Below, in pieces: positions 45,558-55,470 of a DNA stretch of 64,000 nucleotides. Position 1 is the stretch's first letter; each line of letters starts with the position of its first letter. The notes beneath the pieces were generated by a model. It made no database searches. It saw nothing but the letters and a program-made list of their open reading frames with translations, and was not told where the DNA came from. The translations under genes were made by a program, and so were the position numbers. This stretch comes from Naegleria gruberi. Taxonomy: Eukaryota. The stretch is taken from NCBI GenBank assembly GCA_000004985.1, contig GG738853.1; one strand, given 5' to 3'.

Positions 45558-46670
45558 TTAGAGTTTACTAACAGTTGTTGCAGCAGCATCATCTTGTTCA
45601 TCACTATTAGCTTGTGGATTCAACTCCATAATTTCAAAATCAAATCTATACTCATATCCGAGCTTATCGTAAATAGGAAGACCATCAAGAGAGGCTTGAA
45701 TAACAATGTATTCATACTTGTCCTTTCTGGTCTTGGCCAATTCAAGCATGGCAATCATCATGACAGTGGCAAATCCCTTTCCTCTATACTTTGGTTTAGT
45801 ACACAAATTACTTCCATAGCAAGTTCTTGGTCCAAAGAAGACTTGTCCAGTGGTTGCAATCTCATTGGTAGCCAAATCCTTGATACAAATCCATGAGAAT
45901 TCATCAGAGTGGAGAGGATAGGTATTATTCATTACTTCAGCAGTCAGTGGACCAGATTTAAAGTCAGTAAAGGTCTCTTGCATACAATCAATGACTTGAA
46001 TTAATTCTTCACGAGTCTCTACAATTTTCATCACAAAATCATTACCCAATTGACATACAACATTCTCACCATTGCTGATTTGGAAAGGTTGGAGTATTCC
46101 CTTATATCCCATAGTATTCTGCATCATTTCCTTCTTACTCTTCATGTAGGAAGTTTCCTCTTCACGTAAATAATAGATCATTCCATGATAGACACTATAA
46201 TCGGTAACATATTGTCCAAGTCTTTCATAGAGAGGTTGATATTTGGTGAGTCTACCTTCGGAATCTAACAAACCCTCCTGAACCATCTTTTCAGTTTGTT
46301 GTTCAACTCTTCCATTCTCAACTAACAAGGTTTTACATTTGGTATCGGGCAGGAAGAGGTAAACCAATGAACGTTTAGCTTGTTTTTCAACAAGGTCAAT
46401 CAATTCAAAATTAGTAATATCATCCCTGCAGGTGTAAGTTGGATTTGGCTCATCCAATTCCTCATATCCAGGTTTAATGCAATTGATGGACTCTTTTTCT
46501 GTTTCTTGTAAATCGGAGAGAGTAGGAATGGCTCTTACCATAATTTGATTCATTTCAAAAATTGAATAGCTAATATCGGCATTCTCCTGTTCTAATTTCT
46601 TCTGTTGTTGGTTAATGATGCTATTAAGAGAATAAGTAGTGTTGGTGGTACATGATGTTGTTTCACTCAT
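45558..46670 (-). CDS. GNAT-family N-acetyltransferase domain protein
   Basis: The C-terminal region KPKYRGKGFATVMMIAMLELAKT..YEYIVIQASLDGLPIYDKLGYE fits GNAT motif A (R/Q-x-x-G-x-G/A) and motif B. The N-terminal about 230 aa are unassigned. Confidence 0.6.
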   Translation of the reverse strand: MSETTSCTTNTTYSLNSIINQQQKKLEQENADISYSIFEMNQIMVRAIPTLSDLQETEKESINCIKPGYEELDEPNPTYTCRDDITNFELIDLVEKQAKRSLVYLFLPDTKCKTLLVENGRVEQQTEKMVQEGLLDSEGRLTKYQPLYERLGQYVTDYSVYHGMIYYLREEETSYMKSKKEMMQNTMGYKGILQPFQISNGENVVCQLGNDFVMKIVETREELIQVIDCMQETFTDFKSGPLTAEVMNNTYPLHSDEFSWICIKDLATNEIATTGQVFFGPRTCYGSNLCTKPKYRGKGFATVMMIAMLELAKTRKDKYEYIVIQASLDGLPIYDKLGYEYRFDFEIMELNPQANSDEQDDAAATTVSKL

Positions 46671-47159: not shown

Positions 47160-48578
47160 ATGATTGAAGTTGAACCAATGAAACCCGTTCGCATTATTTG
47201 TGAACTCAAGGCTACACCAAATGATGCTGTTGATGATGATCAGAACAATAACACAGAGCAGAAAAATCCAAAGGATGAATTTGGTTATCCAAAGACAAGC
47301 CTTGAATATATTACAAAATATTATCAAGATCATCCGGAGGAGAGCAGCAATCCAGAGAATTTTGCAATTATTGTCGGATCCGATAATTATGATGGTACTC
47401 ATGTCAAGGCGATGATATTTGATCTTGAAAAGTATAACATTAAAGATGTTATTGCTATGGAAACTACAGTAATATTTCTGGCAAAGAATGGAGTTTGCTA
47501 TTGTTTATTATATGAAGAAAGCAATTATTGGACTCATAGATTGAACAATGCTAACGAGATTAATGGAGAAATTGCATATGCAGCTACATTTTCGTTGGAA
47601 GATCCTGTAGAGAGAGTCATAGCAAGAGAAGGTGTCATGTTTATTACAAAATCAGGAAGATTGATTTATTGGAATAGGAGTGACAATTTGGAGTTTGAAC
47701 CGGCCCAGTTTGATTATGAAAAAATTGTTGACATTGCATTAGGTGATGGTCACACTTTATTCCTATCAGAAAATGGTAACTTATATGGATATGGAAGCAA
47801 TAGTAGGTTTTTATTATTGATTTAAAATTATTAATCTATTGAAATAGCTGCTGGTCAATTAGGTAATGACATCTCTCACAAATCACATCATGTAAAATTT
47901 AATATTTCACACATACCTGACCGTATTGTAAAGGTTTACGCTACCTACAATACAACTCTAGTTTTAACTGAATCAGGTCATGTATACTCATGTGGAGATA
48001 GCTCATATGGAGCTCACGGACATGCTAATTATACTGAAGGAGGAGGACTTTGCAAAATTGATTTTCCACACAGGGTTGTGGATATTTTCCCTGGTCTGTT
48101 CTTTGTGGCACTAAAAACTATTCAAGACGAGTATTATGTATTTGGCTATAACAACATGTCACAATTTGGACAGTCACATACTATTGAAGAAAGAATTAAT
48201 GGACCTCATTATTTAGATACATTCCAACAAGAAAATATAGAAAGATTGTCATGTGGAGGTTATCATTCATTAATTGTTACAAAGGATCAGAGAGTATACA
48301 TTGCTGGATGGCCAATCGCACATGATTGTTTTCCTTCCAAGGAAAAAACATATCATTTTGTCGATGTGAATGCAATTCTTGGAAGAAAAATACCACTTCC
48401 TTCATATACCGAATTATATGCCACAACTGGACTATACTATATATTGATACAATCAAAGTCAAAATCTACAAATAGGTTTAATTTCAAAAAGAGTTACAAA
48501 ATTTGTGACATTTCATTCAATTTTGAAACAAATACCATAGAACCATATCCTGCATTCATGAACGATGAATATCATTAG
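47160..48578 (+). CDS. RCC1-repeat (regulator of chromosome condensation-like) protein, 2 exons
   Basis: ORFs 47160..47825 and 48078..48578 are the same frame, joined by a 45-nt intron 47803..47847 (GTAGGT..AAATAG). RCC1-type repeats: ALGDGHTLFLSENGNLYGYGSN, AAGQLGND, VLTESGHVYSCGDSSYGAHGH, YVFGYNNMSQFGQ, LIVTKDQRVYIAGW. Confidence 0.7.
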
Positions 48579-48919: not shown

Positions 48920-51127
48920 TTACTCAACTGTAATATTTGAAGAAACAACCTTGCCATCAACCAATTTTCTAAGTTCCATATTGTAAGGTCTCTTTGCAAG
49001 GATATTCTGAACAGTTTGTCTCAAATTTGTAAAGATTTTCCACTCATTACATGCATTATCATCTGGTAATTGGATTACAACATCAAACACTGGATCTGCC
49101 TTCAATTGAAGTCTCATCTTTTCTCCATCTCTTGATGCATTCCTATCACCCATAATCACGCTCTCAACACCTCCTAATAAATCACACAAAATTGGGTTTT
49201 TAAGAATTGATTTCATATCACCGTGAGCACTTCCACACAAAATGACACCCCTTTGGGAAATGGTTCTTGCTGTGCTTACCTCATCTTTTGTTCCAATCTC
49301 ATCAATGACAATTACTTCTGGGGTGTGATTTTGAACTGCTTGAATCATGACTTCTTGTTGTCTTCTAATGTCAGCAACTTGCATTCTTCTCGCCTTTCCT
49401 ATAGCAACATGGGGTATATCACCAAATCCTCCAATTTCACACGAAGTGTCTACAACCACAACTCTTCTCGATTCTGAAAGTGTCTTGGCAAAATCTCTGA
49501 TAAAAGTAGTCTTTCCTGCTCCTGGTTTACCTAACAACAAAATACTCTTTCCTTCTTCTATCAAATCTGAGAACACTTTAGCTCTTCCCATCACTGCTCT
49601 TCCCACTCTCAAGGTTAGTCCAATAATTTTTGCCTCTCTATTGAGCATGGCACTAATTCTGTGCAGTGATCCATCCATACCAGCTCTATTGTCAGTTCCA
49701 AATGATAGCTTGTTAACAATTTCATCAATTTCTTCCTGTTTCACAATGAAGGTTGGATTACTGTATGGTTCCTTTTTGTGGTAGAAGAATAATTCATAAG
49801 GCCTACCTTTGTCCATGGCCACTTCTATTAAATTGTTAACGTCTTCTCCTGATATGGTTGATAATTGTTCCTGAATCTTCTTTGGAAACAAATCCAAGAA
49901 ACTATAAATTTGATTGATTATTGTTACGTTAAAATCAGAGTGTTGCGTCAATATGGCGACATCTTGTTGGGCTGGCTCTTCAAGTGTTGATTTAACCTTA
50001 ATAGTCTCTTGTTTGATGGTTGGGTTTTGCAGTTGATTGTAAATTCCATTCCACAACTTTTTGACTTCTTCATCAACCATAGACAAGATTAATTTAGCTT
50101 CGTCGTTTACAGAATCAGTCATGGCTTGATACAATTGTACAAGTGTTCTAACATCTCCTGAAGCATAATTCAACATTTCTTTAGTAAATATCTTATTGCC
50201 CCAACTTCCAGTACTATGCAGCTTTTTTCCCAAATGTTTGTAACTATTTCCAGGCACCTCATACAATTCACACAGATCATTGAATGAAATATTTCTTTGA
50301 GTATCACTTATTATTTGATAGAGTATTGAAGTGTCAACAATTGATGTTACAATTATTCCAAAATCCTTAAATAATCCACATAAATCATTTTCACAATCAT
50401 GAATTACTTTCAAAATAGTTTCATCACCAAGTACTGTCTTTACAGCATTAACAATAGTTGGATCTTTAAGTTTCATATCAAATAAATATTGAACACCATG
50501 TGCTGAAATCTGAACTAGTGTCAATTTTCCATTTCTTCCCAAATTCACACCTTCACAATCAACACCAATCATCTTTGTAGAATGCTTTGACATGTTAGAT
50601 AGAAATTCATTAGCAAAACTTGGAGTATTCACCAAAACTATATCACCATTATCAACACTCTTCTCAATAGGCATTTCCTTTCCTTTACTCTTCTCAATCA
50701 ATGCATTCAATTTTGATAGAATATTCTTGATTGACTTTTTACCAAAATGTTGAAAAGCACTTGCCAATTCTAAAGCACTACATTGTTGCAATAGTTCCAT
50801 TCCACTTCCAAATGTTTTTTGGGATTTAATTTGTAGTTTTGGAATTTTAATTTGTAAAGTTAGAGTATCTGCCTTTTCATCATATCGGAACCATCCACTA
50901 CTCTCACCACTAAACATTACATCGTAGACATCTTGCCACGATGGTAAATCATCGAATTGCTTTTGATAGGGTTCATAGGAATATTGACATTCGAGAGTGC
51001 CTTCAAATTGATTACTGGTTGCTGGTTTTCCATTGGACAGGACACAAACTGCATAGGCACGGATTAGTTTATCAAGGAGAGTATGATTGTCGGTCATGTT
51101 GTTGATGTTTTTTAATTGTATGTACAA
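48920..51127 (-). CDS. Fusion protein: 3'-5' exonuclease (DEDD/RNase D-like) domain plus ycf45/SpoIIIAA-like P-loop ATPase
   Basis: Middle region IGVDCEGVNLGRNGKLTLVQIS..YLFDM..LKVIHDCENDLCGLFKDFGI..IVDTSIL has the Exo I-III motif arrangement. The C-terminus ILLLGKPGAGKTTFIRDFAKTL..RVVVVDTSCEIGGFGDIPHVAIGKARRMQV..VMIQAVQNHTPEVIVIDEIGT..GSAHG..ILKNPILCDLLGGVESV closely matches the plant/cyanobacterial ycf45-like ATPase as recalled from memory. Confidence 0.65.
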   Translation of the reverse strand: MYIQLKNINNMTDNHTLLDKLIRAYAVCVLSNGKPATSNQFEGTLECQYSYEPYQKQFDDLPSWQDVYDVMFSGESSGWFRYDEKADTLTLQIKIPKLQIKSQKTFGSGMELLQQCSALELASAFQHFGKKSIKNILSKLNALIEKSKGKEMPIEKSVDNGDIVLVNTPSFANEFLSNMSKHSTKMIGVDCEGVNLGRNGKLTLVQISAHGVQYLFDMKLKDPTIVNAVKTVLGDETILKVIHDCENDLCGLFKDFGIIVTSIVDTSILYQIISDTQRNISFNDLCELYEVPGNSYKHLGKKLHSTGSWGNKIFTKEMLNYASGDVRTLVQLYQAMTDSVNDEAKLILSMVDEEVKKLWNGIYNQLQNPTIKQETIKVKSTLEEPAQQDVAILTQHSDFNVTIINQIYSFLDLFPKKIQEQLSTISGEDVNNLIEVAMDKGRPYELFFYHKKEPYSNPTFIVKQEEIDEIVNKLSFGTDNRAGMDGSLHRISAMLNREAKIIGLTLRVGRAVMGRAKVFSDLIEEGKSILLLGKPGAGKTTFIRDFAKTLSESRRVVVVDTSCEIGGFGDIPHVAIGKARRMQVADIRRQQEVMIQAVQNHTPEVIVIDEIGTKDEVSTARTISQRGVILCGSAHGDMKSILKNPILCDLLGGVESVIMGDRNASRDGEKMRLQLKADPVFDVVIQLPDDNACNEWKIFTNLRQTVQNILAKRPYNMELRKLVDGKVVSSNITVE

Positions 51128-51407: not shown

Positions 51408-52508
51408 ATGGTTGTAGGAAATGATGAGGAAAAGTATAAGAGTTTGATATTCAACGCTTTCTGCAAATTCTTCACTCACCATTCTTTTCAAGAATTTAAT
51501 CTTCAAGGAAGAAGGAACTCGACTTCAATTCAACAACATTCATCTTTCCTGATCAACAATTACAACAACAATCAAAAAAAATACCTCACCTTCGCACAAC
51601 CTTTTGCTTGTTCGCCATCTGGTACTATTTTTTTTCACATGGAATTTATAGAACTTTCGGATGATAATTGTTTCGAAATAATTAGTTATTTGGATAATTG
51701 GTTTGTTTTGAAAAATTGCACACTCATTTCCAAGCAATGGTATGACGTGATTCGGTATCGTGTTTCGAATCTTTCCATTTCTTTTAGAAAGAAAATGGAC
51801 GAGGAAAGAGTTTCGAATATATGGAAGAGTGAATTTTTGAATTGCATTAGCAAGGTTCATGTCGGATGTTATGTTGGAAAGAGTTTCTTATTAGCCCTCC
51901 AGAAAATGAAAAATTTAACTTGGTTGGATATTCATTCGAATCAGATTGATTCTGAAGGAGCTCGATTAATTAGTCAAATTCAACAATTGAAATATCTGGA
52001 TATTGGATGCAATCAAATTGGGACGAAAGGAGCCGAATTTATGAGTGAAATGAAACAATTAACTTGCCTAAAAGTCAATAATAATCAACTGAAAGATGAG
52101 GCAATGCAATCAATTGGTCAATTGGAAAATTTAACACATCTTAATGTGAATGGAAATGAAATTCACTCAAATGGTGTTGAACACATTGTGAATTTGAAAC
52201 AATTGACTCGACTTGAAATGAATTGTAATGAAATTAGAAATCTTAATCCTGATTCGATTAGTCAACTTTCGAATTTGACCTATCTTGATATTTACAATAA
52301 TAATACAGGAAATTCGGCTGTGCAAGCAATTACAAGTCTGAAACAATTAACTTTCCTAAATATTGGTTACAATGGAGTTACTTGGTTTGGAGCTTTCTCA
52401 TTGAGCGAAATGAAACAATTGAAAAATCTTAAAATGAAAAGCAATTCAATTGGAAACGATGGACTAGAAGCTTTAAAAAGTTTAATATTTACACAAATTG
52501 AATTGTAA
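51408..52508 (+). CDS. F-box/LRR protein (MSEMKQLT-type repeats)
   Basis: F-box DDNCFEIISYLDNWFVLKNCTLISKQWYDVI, then 24-aa repeats (LDIHSNQIDSEGARLISQIQQLKY, LDIGCNQIGTKGAEFMSEMKQLTC ..). Paralogous to the 22592..23777 gene. The true start is probably the internal Met (MEFIELSDD, about 51639). Confidence 0.7.
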   Translation: MVVGNDEEKYKSLIFNAFCKFFTHHSFQEFNLQGRRNSTSIQQHSSFLINNYNNNQKKYLTFAQPFACSPSGTIFFHMEFIELSDDNCFEIISYLDNWFVLKNCTLISKQWYDVIRYRVSNLSISFRKKMDEERVSNIWKSEFLNCISKVHVGCYVGKSFLLALQKMKNLTWLDIHSNQIDSEGARLISQIQQLKYLDIGCNQIGTKGAEFMSEMKQLTCLKVNNNQLKDEAMQSIGQLENLTHLNVNGNEIHSNGVEHIVNLKQLTRLEMNCNEIRNLNPDSISQLSNLTYLDIYNNNTGNSAVQAITSLKQLTFLNIGYNGVTWFGAFSLSEMKQLKNLKMKSNSIGNDGLEALKSLIFTQIEL

Positions 52509-54033: not shown

Positions 54034-55470
54034 ATGTCTCGTTCATATGGTAAACTGTTGGTTATTAACAGTGTCTTGTCATTTCTACTTGTATTCATTT
54101 TGACAGAATTCTGTCATGCCTTGCCAAAAATCAGAGGTTTCAAACAACAATCAAATTCTATTGTAAGACCTTGGTCACAAACGTTTGGAGATTATCGTTT
54201 CTCGAACTTGGTCAATTTCACTCTATCCCATTCTGATTGGTCAACTGAACTTGGTGGCTCAATTGACGAAAACAGTGTAGCCTTTGCTTCTCTTACTAAC
54301 AACAAGGAAGGTTACCTGTACATGATAATTGACTATCCATATACCAATCTGAATTCTACCTTCATCAAATTAGATGCCACCAGTGGTAAAATTGTCCAAA
54401 CTTTAGTTAACATTATTCCACAAGATTCTCAACCAGTCATTATAGAAATTGCAGCACTTTTGGATTCGAATGGAAACTATTACGTAATTAGAAAAAGCAA
54501 AAACGATCACAATGGAGTACTTTTAATGAAAATATCAACAAGTAATTTCCAGGTGCTAACAATTTCAATTTCCACAAGTTTCTTCACTGGAATGGTCATT
54601 TCAGAAAGGAATAATTTGCTAATTGTCCATGGAAATGAATTCGTTTCTGCTTTCAATTTGGATACTTTGAAAACGGTATGGACAACCCAATTGAAAAAGG
54701 ATGATACAATCTCAGAGTCAACCATTGTCCTCGTTGAGAATGAATTCAACGATGGAATTGACATTGTGTACTGTTCTTTCAGAAGTTTCGTATTCAGAAT
54801 TAGAGCAAGAGACGGAGCTGTATTGTCAACAATGGATGTGCACGATGACAGATACTTTGTTGAGATATATCTTTTGCAAATTAGTTATAGTGGAATTCCT
54901 GGTTTAATTGGAGTTCAGTTTGGTTCATATTTCATGTCAATTGAAACAACCACACAAACTTTAGGTCCTAGAACTAAATTGGTATCATTAGAATATTGTA
55001 GTCCTCCAATGTCCACACAAATCAAGAGTGGAGAATCAGAATTCCATTTTGAAACTGTTTTTACCTGTTCCAACATTTCATCTTACATGCAATGGACATT
55101 TGGTTCCAATTATTTGTTAAATTACAAAACTCTCGCTCATCACCAGGGAAATGGAAGAATTGTAATTGAAAATCCCAAATTGAAATATGAATTGGATGTT
55201 GGAAGAGGGCAGGAATCTCATCTTCTTCCAACAAATTCATTGGATTCGTCTGGGTTGACTATTTTGGTTGGATCCAATTCTCAAGAATTTCCACAACCAT
55301 TCAAGTATGATCTTTCAAGAAATGGCATTTCAAAGGTTCAACTTTCGAATAGGAAGAGTGGTGTTTTGAATTCGAAATTTTTGACCTATACAGCAAGTAA
55401 TTCTAGAATGTATGTCTGTAACAATAATGAGAAGAAAAACTATTGCTACTCATCATTGATTCAACAATAA
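54034..55470 (+). CDS. Secreted hypothetical protein (N-terminal signal peptide, beta-rich)
   Basis: Hydrophobic N-terminus MSRSYGKLLVINSVLSFLLVFILTEFCHA, then a Ser/Thr/Asn-rich beta-strand-like sequence. No motif recognised. Confidence 0.45.
   Translation: MSRSYGKLLVINSVLSFLLVFILTEFCHALPKIRGFKQQSNSIVRPWSQTFGDYRFSNLVNFTLSHSDWSTELGGSIDENSVAFASLTNNKEGYLYMIIDYPYTNLNSTFIKLDATSGKIVQTLVNIIPQDSQPVIIEIAALLDSNGNYYVIRKSKNDHNGVLLMKISTSNFQVLTISISTSFFTGMVISERNNLLIVHGNEFVSAFNLDTLKTVWTTQLKKDDTISESTIVLVENEFNDGIDIVYCSFRSFVFRIRARDGAVLSTMDVHDDRYFVEIYLLQISYSGIPGLIGVQFGSYFMSIETTTQTLGPRTKLVSLEYCSPPMSTQIKSGESEFHFETVFTCSNISSYMQWTFGSNYLLNYKTLAHHQGNGRIVIENPKLKYELDVGRGQESHLLPTNSLDSSGLTILVGSNSQEFPQPFKYDLSRNGISKVQLSNRKSGVLNSKFLTYTASNSRMYVCNNNEKKNYCYSSLIQQ

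Follow-up and report, generated by a model that had tools for sequence, protein, structure and literature searches.

A 64,000-nucleotide stretch of the Naegleria gruberi genome (contig GG738853.1 of NCBI GenBank assembly GCA_000004985.1; hereafter the window) carries on its minus strand, at positions 48920..51127, a single uninterrupted open reading frame (ORF) of 735 amino acids counted from a TTG codon. Within this ORF, a DEDD-type 3'-5' exonuclease domain is followed by an ATPase module of the Ycf45/SpoIIIAA type, with no stop codon between the two halves. An earlier note made from the DNA alone had reported this ORF and named both domains, and on these points our analysis agrees: the ORF is present at exactly these coordinates, and both domain calls lie above the curated Pfam cutoffs. 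The eukaryotic coding sequence is likely the single exon 48920..51097, which begins with the ATG at position 51097 and encodes 725 residues followed by a TAA stop codon. We place the start here because this is the first ATG after an in-frame TAA and because it aligns with Met1 of the orthologue from Naegleria lovaniensis (P0001), a 778-residue protein that carries both domains and is collinear from end to end (E = 1.5e-250; 54-59% identity). All residue numbers below refer to the 725-residue product, and all of its features lie on the minus strand.

The exonuclease domain spans residues 155-330 (50108..50635) and is recognized by PF01612 with 96.6 bits against a curated cutoff of 23.6 (E = 1.9e-27). 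Its DEDDy residues are complete and fall at positions that match the catalytic residues of Egalitarian (Egl), the best sequence match in the PDB (E = 5.7e-27). Specifically, the Exo I motif DCE (50552..50560) contributes D180 and E182, the Exo II motif HDCEND (50384..50401) contributes H233 and D238, and the Exo III motif YASGD (50153..50167), which aligns with YAAGD of Egalitarian, contributes Y311 and D315. Among 50 aligned fusion relatives, the DEDDy residues are retained in 43-47 members (D180 in 44, E182 in 47, D238 in 44, Y311 in 45, and D315 in 43), and the Exo II histidine is present in all 50.

When a profile of the family was compared with solved structures, the best match was again Egalitarian (E = 8.6e-46), followed by Trypanosoma brucei RNase D (4e-32), Rrp6 (about 1e-26), and EXD1 (7.5e-23), with weaker matches to Escherichia coli RNase D (4e-20), WRN (1e-10), and EXD2 (4e-10). 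An AlphaFold2 monomer model, built with the 50-sequence alignment, has a mean predicted local distance difference test (pLDDT) value of 82.7 and is confident (pLDDT >90) for the exonuclease (residues about 150-357) and for the ATPase module (residues about 391-725). A Foldseek comparison of the modeled exonuclease half with the PDB placed Egalitarian first (E = 2.6e-15), followed by T. brucei RNase D (TMt 0.53-0.59; root mean square deviation about 3 Å), Rrp6, and NrnC (TMt 0.72-0.75). This half of the N. gruberi protein has the sequence, motif, and RNase H-like alpha/beta fold features of the DEDDy exonuclease superfamily, and the exonuclease fold expected by the earlier note is supported by both the domain scan and the structure model.

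The ATPase half is matched by PF19568 (Spore_III_AA) at residues 490-641 (48.6 bits against a curated cutoff of 27; E = 8e-13). The NCBIfam model TIGR02858 also matches (E = 1.1e-20), but its score of 74.1 bits is far under the SpoIIIAA equivalog cutoff of 281.3, so the protein is a member of this family and not a SpoIIIAA ortholog. The module begins with an N-terminal subdomain (residues 391-503; 49589..49927), from which point alignment with bacterial and unfused relatives becomes possible. This subdomain is modeled with pLDDT values above 90 and contains the invariant residues H479, R480, and R497. It is followed by the P-loop ATPase core (residues 504-660; 49118..49588), which is supported by both profile matches and by the structural comparisons described below.

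Four motifs are evident in this core. The Walker A motif GKPGAGKTT (49505..49531) includes G526, G528, and T530, each present in 50 of 50 aligned members, and K529, present in 49. An Asp-box-like motif, VVVVDTSCEIGG (49427..49462), includes D550 and E554, which are likewise found in all 50 sequences. The Walker B motif VIVIDE (49298..49315) provides D599 and E600, each conserved in 49 members, and a His-box-like motif, GSAHG (49220..49234), provides H625, conserved in 48. Taken with R480, R497, R571, and R616, all of these residues are kept by 48-50 of the 50 sequences. The conservation of the DEDDy and ATPase residues across these members suggests that both active sites are under purifying selection.

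The module ends with a beta-rich subdomain (residues 661-725; 48923..49117) that has no Pfam match and is modeled as strands spanning residues 661-724 with pLDDT values of about 90 or above. It occupies the place where bacterial relatives run on into PTPase-like and R3H domains. The earlier note described the region from Walker A to the GGVE motif as matching plastid and cyanobacterial Ycf45 proteins nearly residue for residue. The family match is indeed strong, but this wording overstates it: a Calothrix relative is identical at 62% of positions (78 of 126) from Walker A through GGVES and at 48.5% across the entire ATPase module. In addition, relatives from outside the cyanobacteria are equally similar, as illustrated by a Chloroflexota protein with 63% identity in the core and 52.6% overall.

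No sequence match to the ATPase half was found among solved structures by the family profile search. In a structural comparison with the PDB, the modeled module matched PINA, a hexameric helicase from archaea (5f4h; E = 3e-12), as well as DotB, PilU, GspE, FlaI, and CpaF, which are hexameric traffic ATPases, with 330-350 columns aligned and E values of 1e-9 to 3e-12. The modeled module thus has the two-subdomain fold (N-domain plus RecA-like core) of the hexameric PilT/VirB11-class ATPases.

Two further regions complete the protein. The N-terminal region (residues 1-150; 50648..51097) is lineage-specific and poorly modeled (pLDDT about 40-60), although partly helical in the model. No Pfam match was obtained in the N-terminal 160 residues, even at E values up to 10, and detectable similarity is limited to N. 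lovaniensis (phmmer E = 1e-16). Between the two domains (49928..50107) lie a long helix (residues 331-357, modeled as helical from 334) and a variable, disordered linker (residues 358-390) whose pLDDT falls below 50 at residues 361-381. This helix-linker segment differs in length among orthologs.

The earlier note regarded the combination of these domains as unusual and asked whether orthologs carry the same fusion. They do, and the description as unusual does not hold. An exhaustive profile search of 1.84 billion cluster representatives (50%-identity clusters) yielded 13,271 relatives, and in at least 57 of the best 150 of these the exonuclease precedes the ATPase in the same order. This search, together with an ATPase-only homology search that gave 6753 relatives at E values at or below 1e-10, superseded a full-length word-indexed search that had returned four matches; an exonuclease-only word-indexed search returned one. 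In the 50-member alignment, PF19568 is found in all 50 sequences and PF01612 in 49.

Named members of the fusion family include proteins from the chytrid fungus Synchytrium microbalum (XP_031025123) and from Rhodelphis marinus, as well as the transcriptome shotgun assembly (TSA) entry GILJ01009407. Others derive from transcripts of Amoeba proteus (two Trinity isoforms) and of the choanoflagellate Didymoeca costata, where the ORF on the transcript is complete. Thus, the fusion spans Discoba, Amoebozoa, chytrid fungi, choanoflagellates, and Rhodelphis. The concern that the two domains might belong to separate transcripts is answered, for the orthologs, by complete two-domain ORFs on assembled transcripts of other species. 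Some fusion relatives also carry additional N-terminal domains, namely LOTUS/OST-HTH, CCCH, NPM1-C, and, as a borderline match in Rhodelphis, WH_Egal.

Metagenomic relatives extend this picture. The best of them (P0128) lies on a 75-kb contig with plainly eukaryotic genes, including RhoGAP, coronin/villin-like, MIF4G, and F-box genes. A heterolobosean-like relative (P0002) seems to be truncated at Walker A, but this is due to a 41-nucleotide GT..AG intron within the P-loop codons (L005:2199-2239), after which the ATPase resumes in frame. The same intron caused a prokaryotic gene caller to report two separate genes. A more distant relative of 871 residues (P0003) joins a CCCH zinc finger to the exonuclease and ATPase, and it recurs on single-gene contigs of about 3 kb in at least four samples. 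A giant-virus origin was considered and dropped, as a scan of viral contigs gave no relative. We also observed that a 1753-residue protein of Chlamydomonas schloesseri (P0127; KAG2447382) is one of the top-scoring matches (530 bits) by way of its ATPase module; it did not register as an exonuclease fusion.

From these findings, the fusion is almost certainly a real and conserved single protein. It is a widespread eukaryotic family, neither unique to the window nor newly sequenced, and proteins of this architecture can be found in public databases under names such as "hypothetical" or "AAA+ ATPase domain-containing" protein. The family as such seems not to have been described or characterized before. 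Literature searches found no paper describing an exonuclease-Ycf45 ATPase pairing, which is in line with the statement of the earlier note that no characterized protein with this pairing was known, and a survey paper on OST-HTH/LOTUS domains does not describe the architecture.

To place the ATPase half, a neighbor-joining tree was constructed from 260 ATPase modules (298 trimmed columns) and rooted on a bacterial sequence, midpoint rooting being uninformative. All 55 fusion proteins group together in a single clade of 79 sequences, from which R3H-type proteins are absent. The remaining 24 members of this clade are fragments, proteins whose exonuclease is too diverged for a simple phmmer test, or genuinely unfused eukaryotic paralogs. 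A single origin of the fusion clade is likely, but not proven because the tree carries no support values. With PF01612 followed by PF19568 and an ATPase that groups in the R3H-free eukaryotic clade, the N. gruberi protein is a member of the eukaryotic EXO-Ycf45 fusion family so defined.

The bacterial relatives come from Chloroflexota, cyanobacteria, Margulisbacteria, Fimbriimonadaceae, and others, and their architecture is the ATPase followed by a PTPase-like domain (PF25516) and R3H (PF01424). This tail was not found in the N. gruberi protein by Pfam, nor does the fusion clade include any protein of the R3H type. In Fimbriimonadaceae, the gene for an R3H-type Ycf45-like ATPase (L007:6630-8015) is followed after 25 nucleotides by a gene for a beta-CASP/RMMBL protein of the metallo-beta-lactamase fold (RNase J/CPSF-like). 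We rejected this ribonuclease-type neighbor as evidence, as the pairing is not seen at the other two bacterial loci examined.

N. gruberi carries two additional genes with a related ATPase. One (P0007), on a different scaffold of 1.0 Mb, is 90% identical to residues 373-649 and is annotated solely as a 282-residue partial model comprising the ATPase core; the 90%-identity cluster to which this model belongs contains one more member. The other (P0073), on a 394.7-kb scaffold, is an unfused protein of 508 residues whose ATPase module is 45% identical and whose 165-residue N-terminus has no recognizable domain. A weak BLAST segment had raised the possibility of a degenerate exonuclease remnant in the latter protein, but this was rejected because profile comparison shows the ATPase module only. 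Maruyama et al. [quoted passage not shown] No mention of its fusion to an exonuclease was found in the literature.

The surroundings of the gene are those of N. gruberi nuclear DNA. Neighboring ORFs at 45558-46670 and 54034-55470 are exactly XP_002680568 and XP_002680418 of strain NEG-M, on a scaffold of 695,587 bp. The guanine-cytosine (GC) content of the coding sequence is 35.2% (33.1% and 37.0% for its two halves), and as this resembles the flanks (35.3% and 32.4%), base composition gives no hint of contamination or recent transfer. A search of a collection of 15 billion sequences found no exact protein record for 48920-51097 (minus strand), whereas the flanking genes are recorded exactly. 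The locus may be missing or mis-modeled in the NEG-M annotation, from which the correct gene model appears to be absent. On the plus strand, the gene contains two further ORFs (49223-49477 and 49347-49784), which we set aside as mechanical antisense ORFs. Elsewhere in the window, plus-strand ORFs within 47160-48578 look, from their translations, like an RCC1-repeat gene in two pieces; an intron or frameshift somewhere in the interval 47825-48078 is the probable cause of the split. The translation of a plus-strand ORF at 51408-52508 resembles a leucine-rich-repeat/F-box-like protein. Positions 1-1348 of the window are an assembly gap (a run of N), which accounts for the GC content of 11% in the first composition bin.

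What might such a protein do? With about even confidence, and by combining sequence, structure prediction, and analogy, we propose that it is an ATP-driven motor coupled to an active 3'-5' exonuclease that acts on RNA. The gene encodes one protein of 725 residues, presumably located in the cytosol or nucleus. Its ATPase modules would assemble into a ring of the hexamer class and, at the expense of ATP, would bind, remodel, or thread a single strand of nucleic acid, which would most likely be RNA and possibly single-stranded DNA (ssDNA). The ring would then hand the 3' end of this nucleic acid to the tethered exonuclease domains, resulting in trimming or degradation. In bacterial and plastid relatives, this motor is joined to an R3H tail that binds single strands. 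The eukaryotic lineage would have lost this tail and gained an exonuclease, along with RNA-binding modules in some species.

Several observations point to a nucleic acid, and most likely RNA, as the substrate. First, the R3H tail of the bacterial relatives is a single-strand-binding module. Second, the domains added in eukaryotic relatives (LOTUS/OST-HTH, CCCH, NPM1-C, and the borderline WH_Egal) favor RNA. Third, the nearest relatives of the exonuclease are RNA-directed, and Egalitarian binds RNA around its DEDDy active site (bioRxiv 10.1101/2025.08.03.668247). Fourth, a role on nucleic acid is suggested by PINA, the best nucleic-acid-acting structural analog of the ATPase, a ring helicase that begins with a nuclease-fold domain and ends in a KH tail.

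Other observations weigh against this proposal. The predicted template modeling score (pTM) of the structure model is 0.56, and the relative placement of the exonuclease and ATPase domains is therefore uncertain. SpoIIIAA and most ATPases of the PilT/VirB11 class drive secretion or pilus dynamics, not nucleic-acid processing. The gene neighborhoods of three bacterial relatives show no conservation and give no consistent functional hint, and the evolutionary argument draws on a tree without support values. Ycf45 (slr0692) is still called a "hypothetical protein" in a 2026 paper. Finally, the DEDDy residues of Egalitarian are conserved and yet dispensable for its known function (bioRxiv 10.1101/2025.08.03.668247), so conserved motifs are no proof of catalysis.

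This final point also favors an alternative in which the protein would be an RNA-binding adaptor or remodeler. The exonuclease fold would serve for RNA recognition, as in Egalitarian and EXD1, and the ATPase would remodel or transport ribonucleoproteins (RNPs) without RNA degradation. Consistent with such a role, no other solved relative comes nearly as close to the exonuclease half as Egalitarian, the LOTUS and WH_Egal domains seen in some relatives are typical of RNP-organizing proteins, and one or more DEDDy residues have been lost in about 10% of the family. However, the N. gruberi protein retains the full DEDDy set, as do about 88% of the 50 diverse members, a pattern that would be difficult to account for if no member of the family were catalytic, and no BicD, LC8, or WH_Egal features were found in the N. 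gruberi protein. We consider a purely noncatalytic adaptor unlikely.

A role in DNA repair or recombination is somewhat less likely again. In such a role, a PINA-like motor would act on ssDNA or branched DNA, and the exonuclease would resect or proofread 3' ends in the manner of WRN or EXD2. PINA, the top-scoring structural match for the ATPase module, is a hexameric DNA helicase and branch-migration ATPase of the PilT class that acts on Holliday junctions with Hjc and Hjm (PMC6061704). The family profile also matches DEDDy domains from WRN, EXD2, and the Pol I family, R3H domains bind ssDNA as well as RNA, and the gene for one bacterial relative shares a run with those for thymidylate kinase and guanylate kinase and lies about 2.7 kb upstream of PriA. 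Nevertheless, the exonucleases nearest to the N. gruberi domain (Egalitarian, T. brucei RNase D, Rrp6, EXD1, and RNase D) are without exception RNA-directed and outscore WRN and EXD2 by a wide margin, and the accessory LOTUS, CCCH, and NPM1-C domains of relatives are associated with RNA or RNPs.

The earlier note had suggested an organellar, perhaps mitochondrial, nucleic-acid factor, for which a ycf45 gene of cyanobacterial or plastid descent would be the source. Many algae encode this ATPase family in their plastids, the ATPase core shares its 62% identity with a cyanobacterial protein, and the N. gruberi YCF45 gene has been assigned cyanobacterial ancestry (PMC3087521). The suggestion gains no support from the remaining data, and we judge it very improbable. 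As a heuristic matter, acidic residues occur within the first 2-8 positions of the N. gruberi protein and of eight other fusion proteins, each either named or full-length, and all of these N-termini have few arginines and a net charge from about zero to slightly positive. Relatives bear folded RNA-binding modules at this end, and the N. gruberi N-terminus, which resembles only that of N. lovaniensis and is partly helical in prediction, is unlike a cleavable presequence. Furthermore, Chloroflexota relatives are as similar as cyanobacterial ones, the PTPase-like and R3H tail is missing, and the fusion clade excludes all R3H-type sequences.

An artifact of annotation or assembly, whereby two adjacent genes are read as one ORF or a chimeric assembly joins them, is effectively refuted: although there is no exact protein record and the sole N. 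gruberi model of this type is the 282-residue partial copy with the ATPase core alone, the same continuous architecture is found in N. lovaniensis, in transcript ORFs of A. proteus, Didymoeca, and the TSA entry, in Synchytrium, and in dozens of metagenomic representatives, the flanking genes match N. gruberi records exactly, and GC content is uniform.

Returning to the motor-coupled exonuclease, a bolder form of this proposal can be envisioned, which we regard as doubtful. The family might represent an ancient eukaryotic machine for RNA 3'-end processing or decay, possibly as old as the last eukaryotic common ancestor, in which a hexameric Ycf45-type ring feeds RNA to six tethered Egl-type exonucleases. 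Animal Egalitarian would then be a descendant that has lost the ATPase, with choanoflagellates still carrying the fusion, and the fusion would reveal the function of the Ycf45/R3H ATPases. If this were true, it would provide the first functional handle on the orphan Ycf45/R3H-ATPase family of cyanobacteria, plastids, and many bacteria, whose members would be nucleic-acid motors.

The fusion is of interest because both of its halves are functional orphans, one being the conserved Ycf45 ATPase of plastids, cyanobacteria, and other bacteria and the other an Egalitarian-type domain with a conserved but unexplained DEDDy site. That at least four eukaryotic supergroups have kept the fusion, and with it the residues of both active sites, constitutes a "Rosetta stone" link which predicts that Ycf45-type ATPases act on the 3' ends of nucleic acids. 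It also offers a concrete and testable protein in tractable organisms such as Naegleria, chytrids, and choanoflagellates.

Judged by its sequence, the N. gruberi protein is not Egalitarian, RNase D or Rrp6 proper, SpoIIIAA, or canonical Ycf45, although it shares features with each. The exonuclease half is closest to the EXO domain of Drosophila Egalitarian by phmmer, family profile, and Foldseek alike, and the DEDDy set is complete in both proteins. In contrast, Egalitarian is an mRNA-dynein adaptor with a BicD-binding N-terminus and an LC8 motif, and it has no ATPase. The N. gruberi protein is set apart from Egalitarian because WH_Egal and other Egl-specific regions were not detected in it, and profile homology outside the EXO core is not significant. 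RNase D and Rrp6 both carry HRDC domains, whereas no HRDC domain was found in the N. gruberi protein among the best 25 (E values at or below 0.03) of its 36 Pfam matches with E values up to 1, and this absence separates it from these enzymes. Likewise, the score for TIGR01388 is 48 bits against a cutoff of 299.

The ATPase half shares with cyanobacterial Ycf45 (slr0692), plastid ycf45, and the bacterial R3H AAA ATPases the same N-subdomain, P-loop core, and invariant motifs, with about 48-53% identity over a module of about 330 residues and 60-63% from Walker A to GGVES. These relatives have the PF25516 and R3H tail and no exonuclease. What distinguishes the Naegleria protein from canonical Ycf45 is the absence of a PTPase-like or R3H tail and its position in a distinct eukaryotic clade without R3H-type proteins. 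Bacillus SpoIIIAA, the ATPase of the sporulation A-Q channel, is related through PF19568 and the TIGR02858 match. It differs in that the N. gruberi score is under the equivalog cutoff, the host is eukaryotic, and the Naegleria gene has neither a spoIIIA operon nor a secretion context.

At the level of overall design, the closest parallels are with proteins that combine similar parts of different origin. WRN, as well as Rrp6 and the exosome with Mtr4, pair a DEDD 3'-5' exonuclease with an NTP-driven nucleic-acid motor, as the Naegleria protein may do. The motor of WRN is a RecQ helicase of superfamily 2 and not a ring ATPase of the PilT/SpoIIIAA class. For archaeal PINA (5f4h), sequence identity is about 11%, and the N-domain is PIN-like rather than DEDDy and is accompanied by a KH tail. 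Nonetheless, the architectural logic is that proposed for the Naegleria family, in that PINA has a nuclease fold at its N-terminus, a ring ATPase, and a module for binding single strands (PMC6061704).

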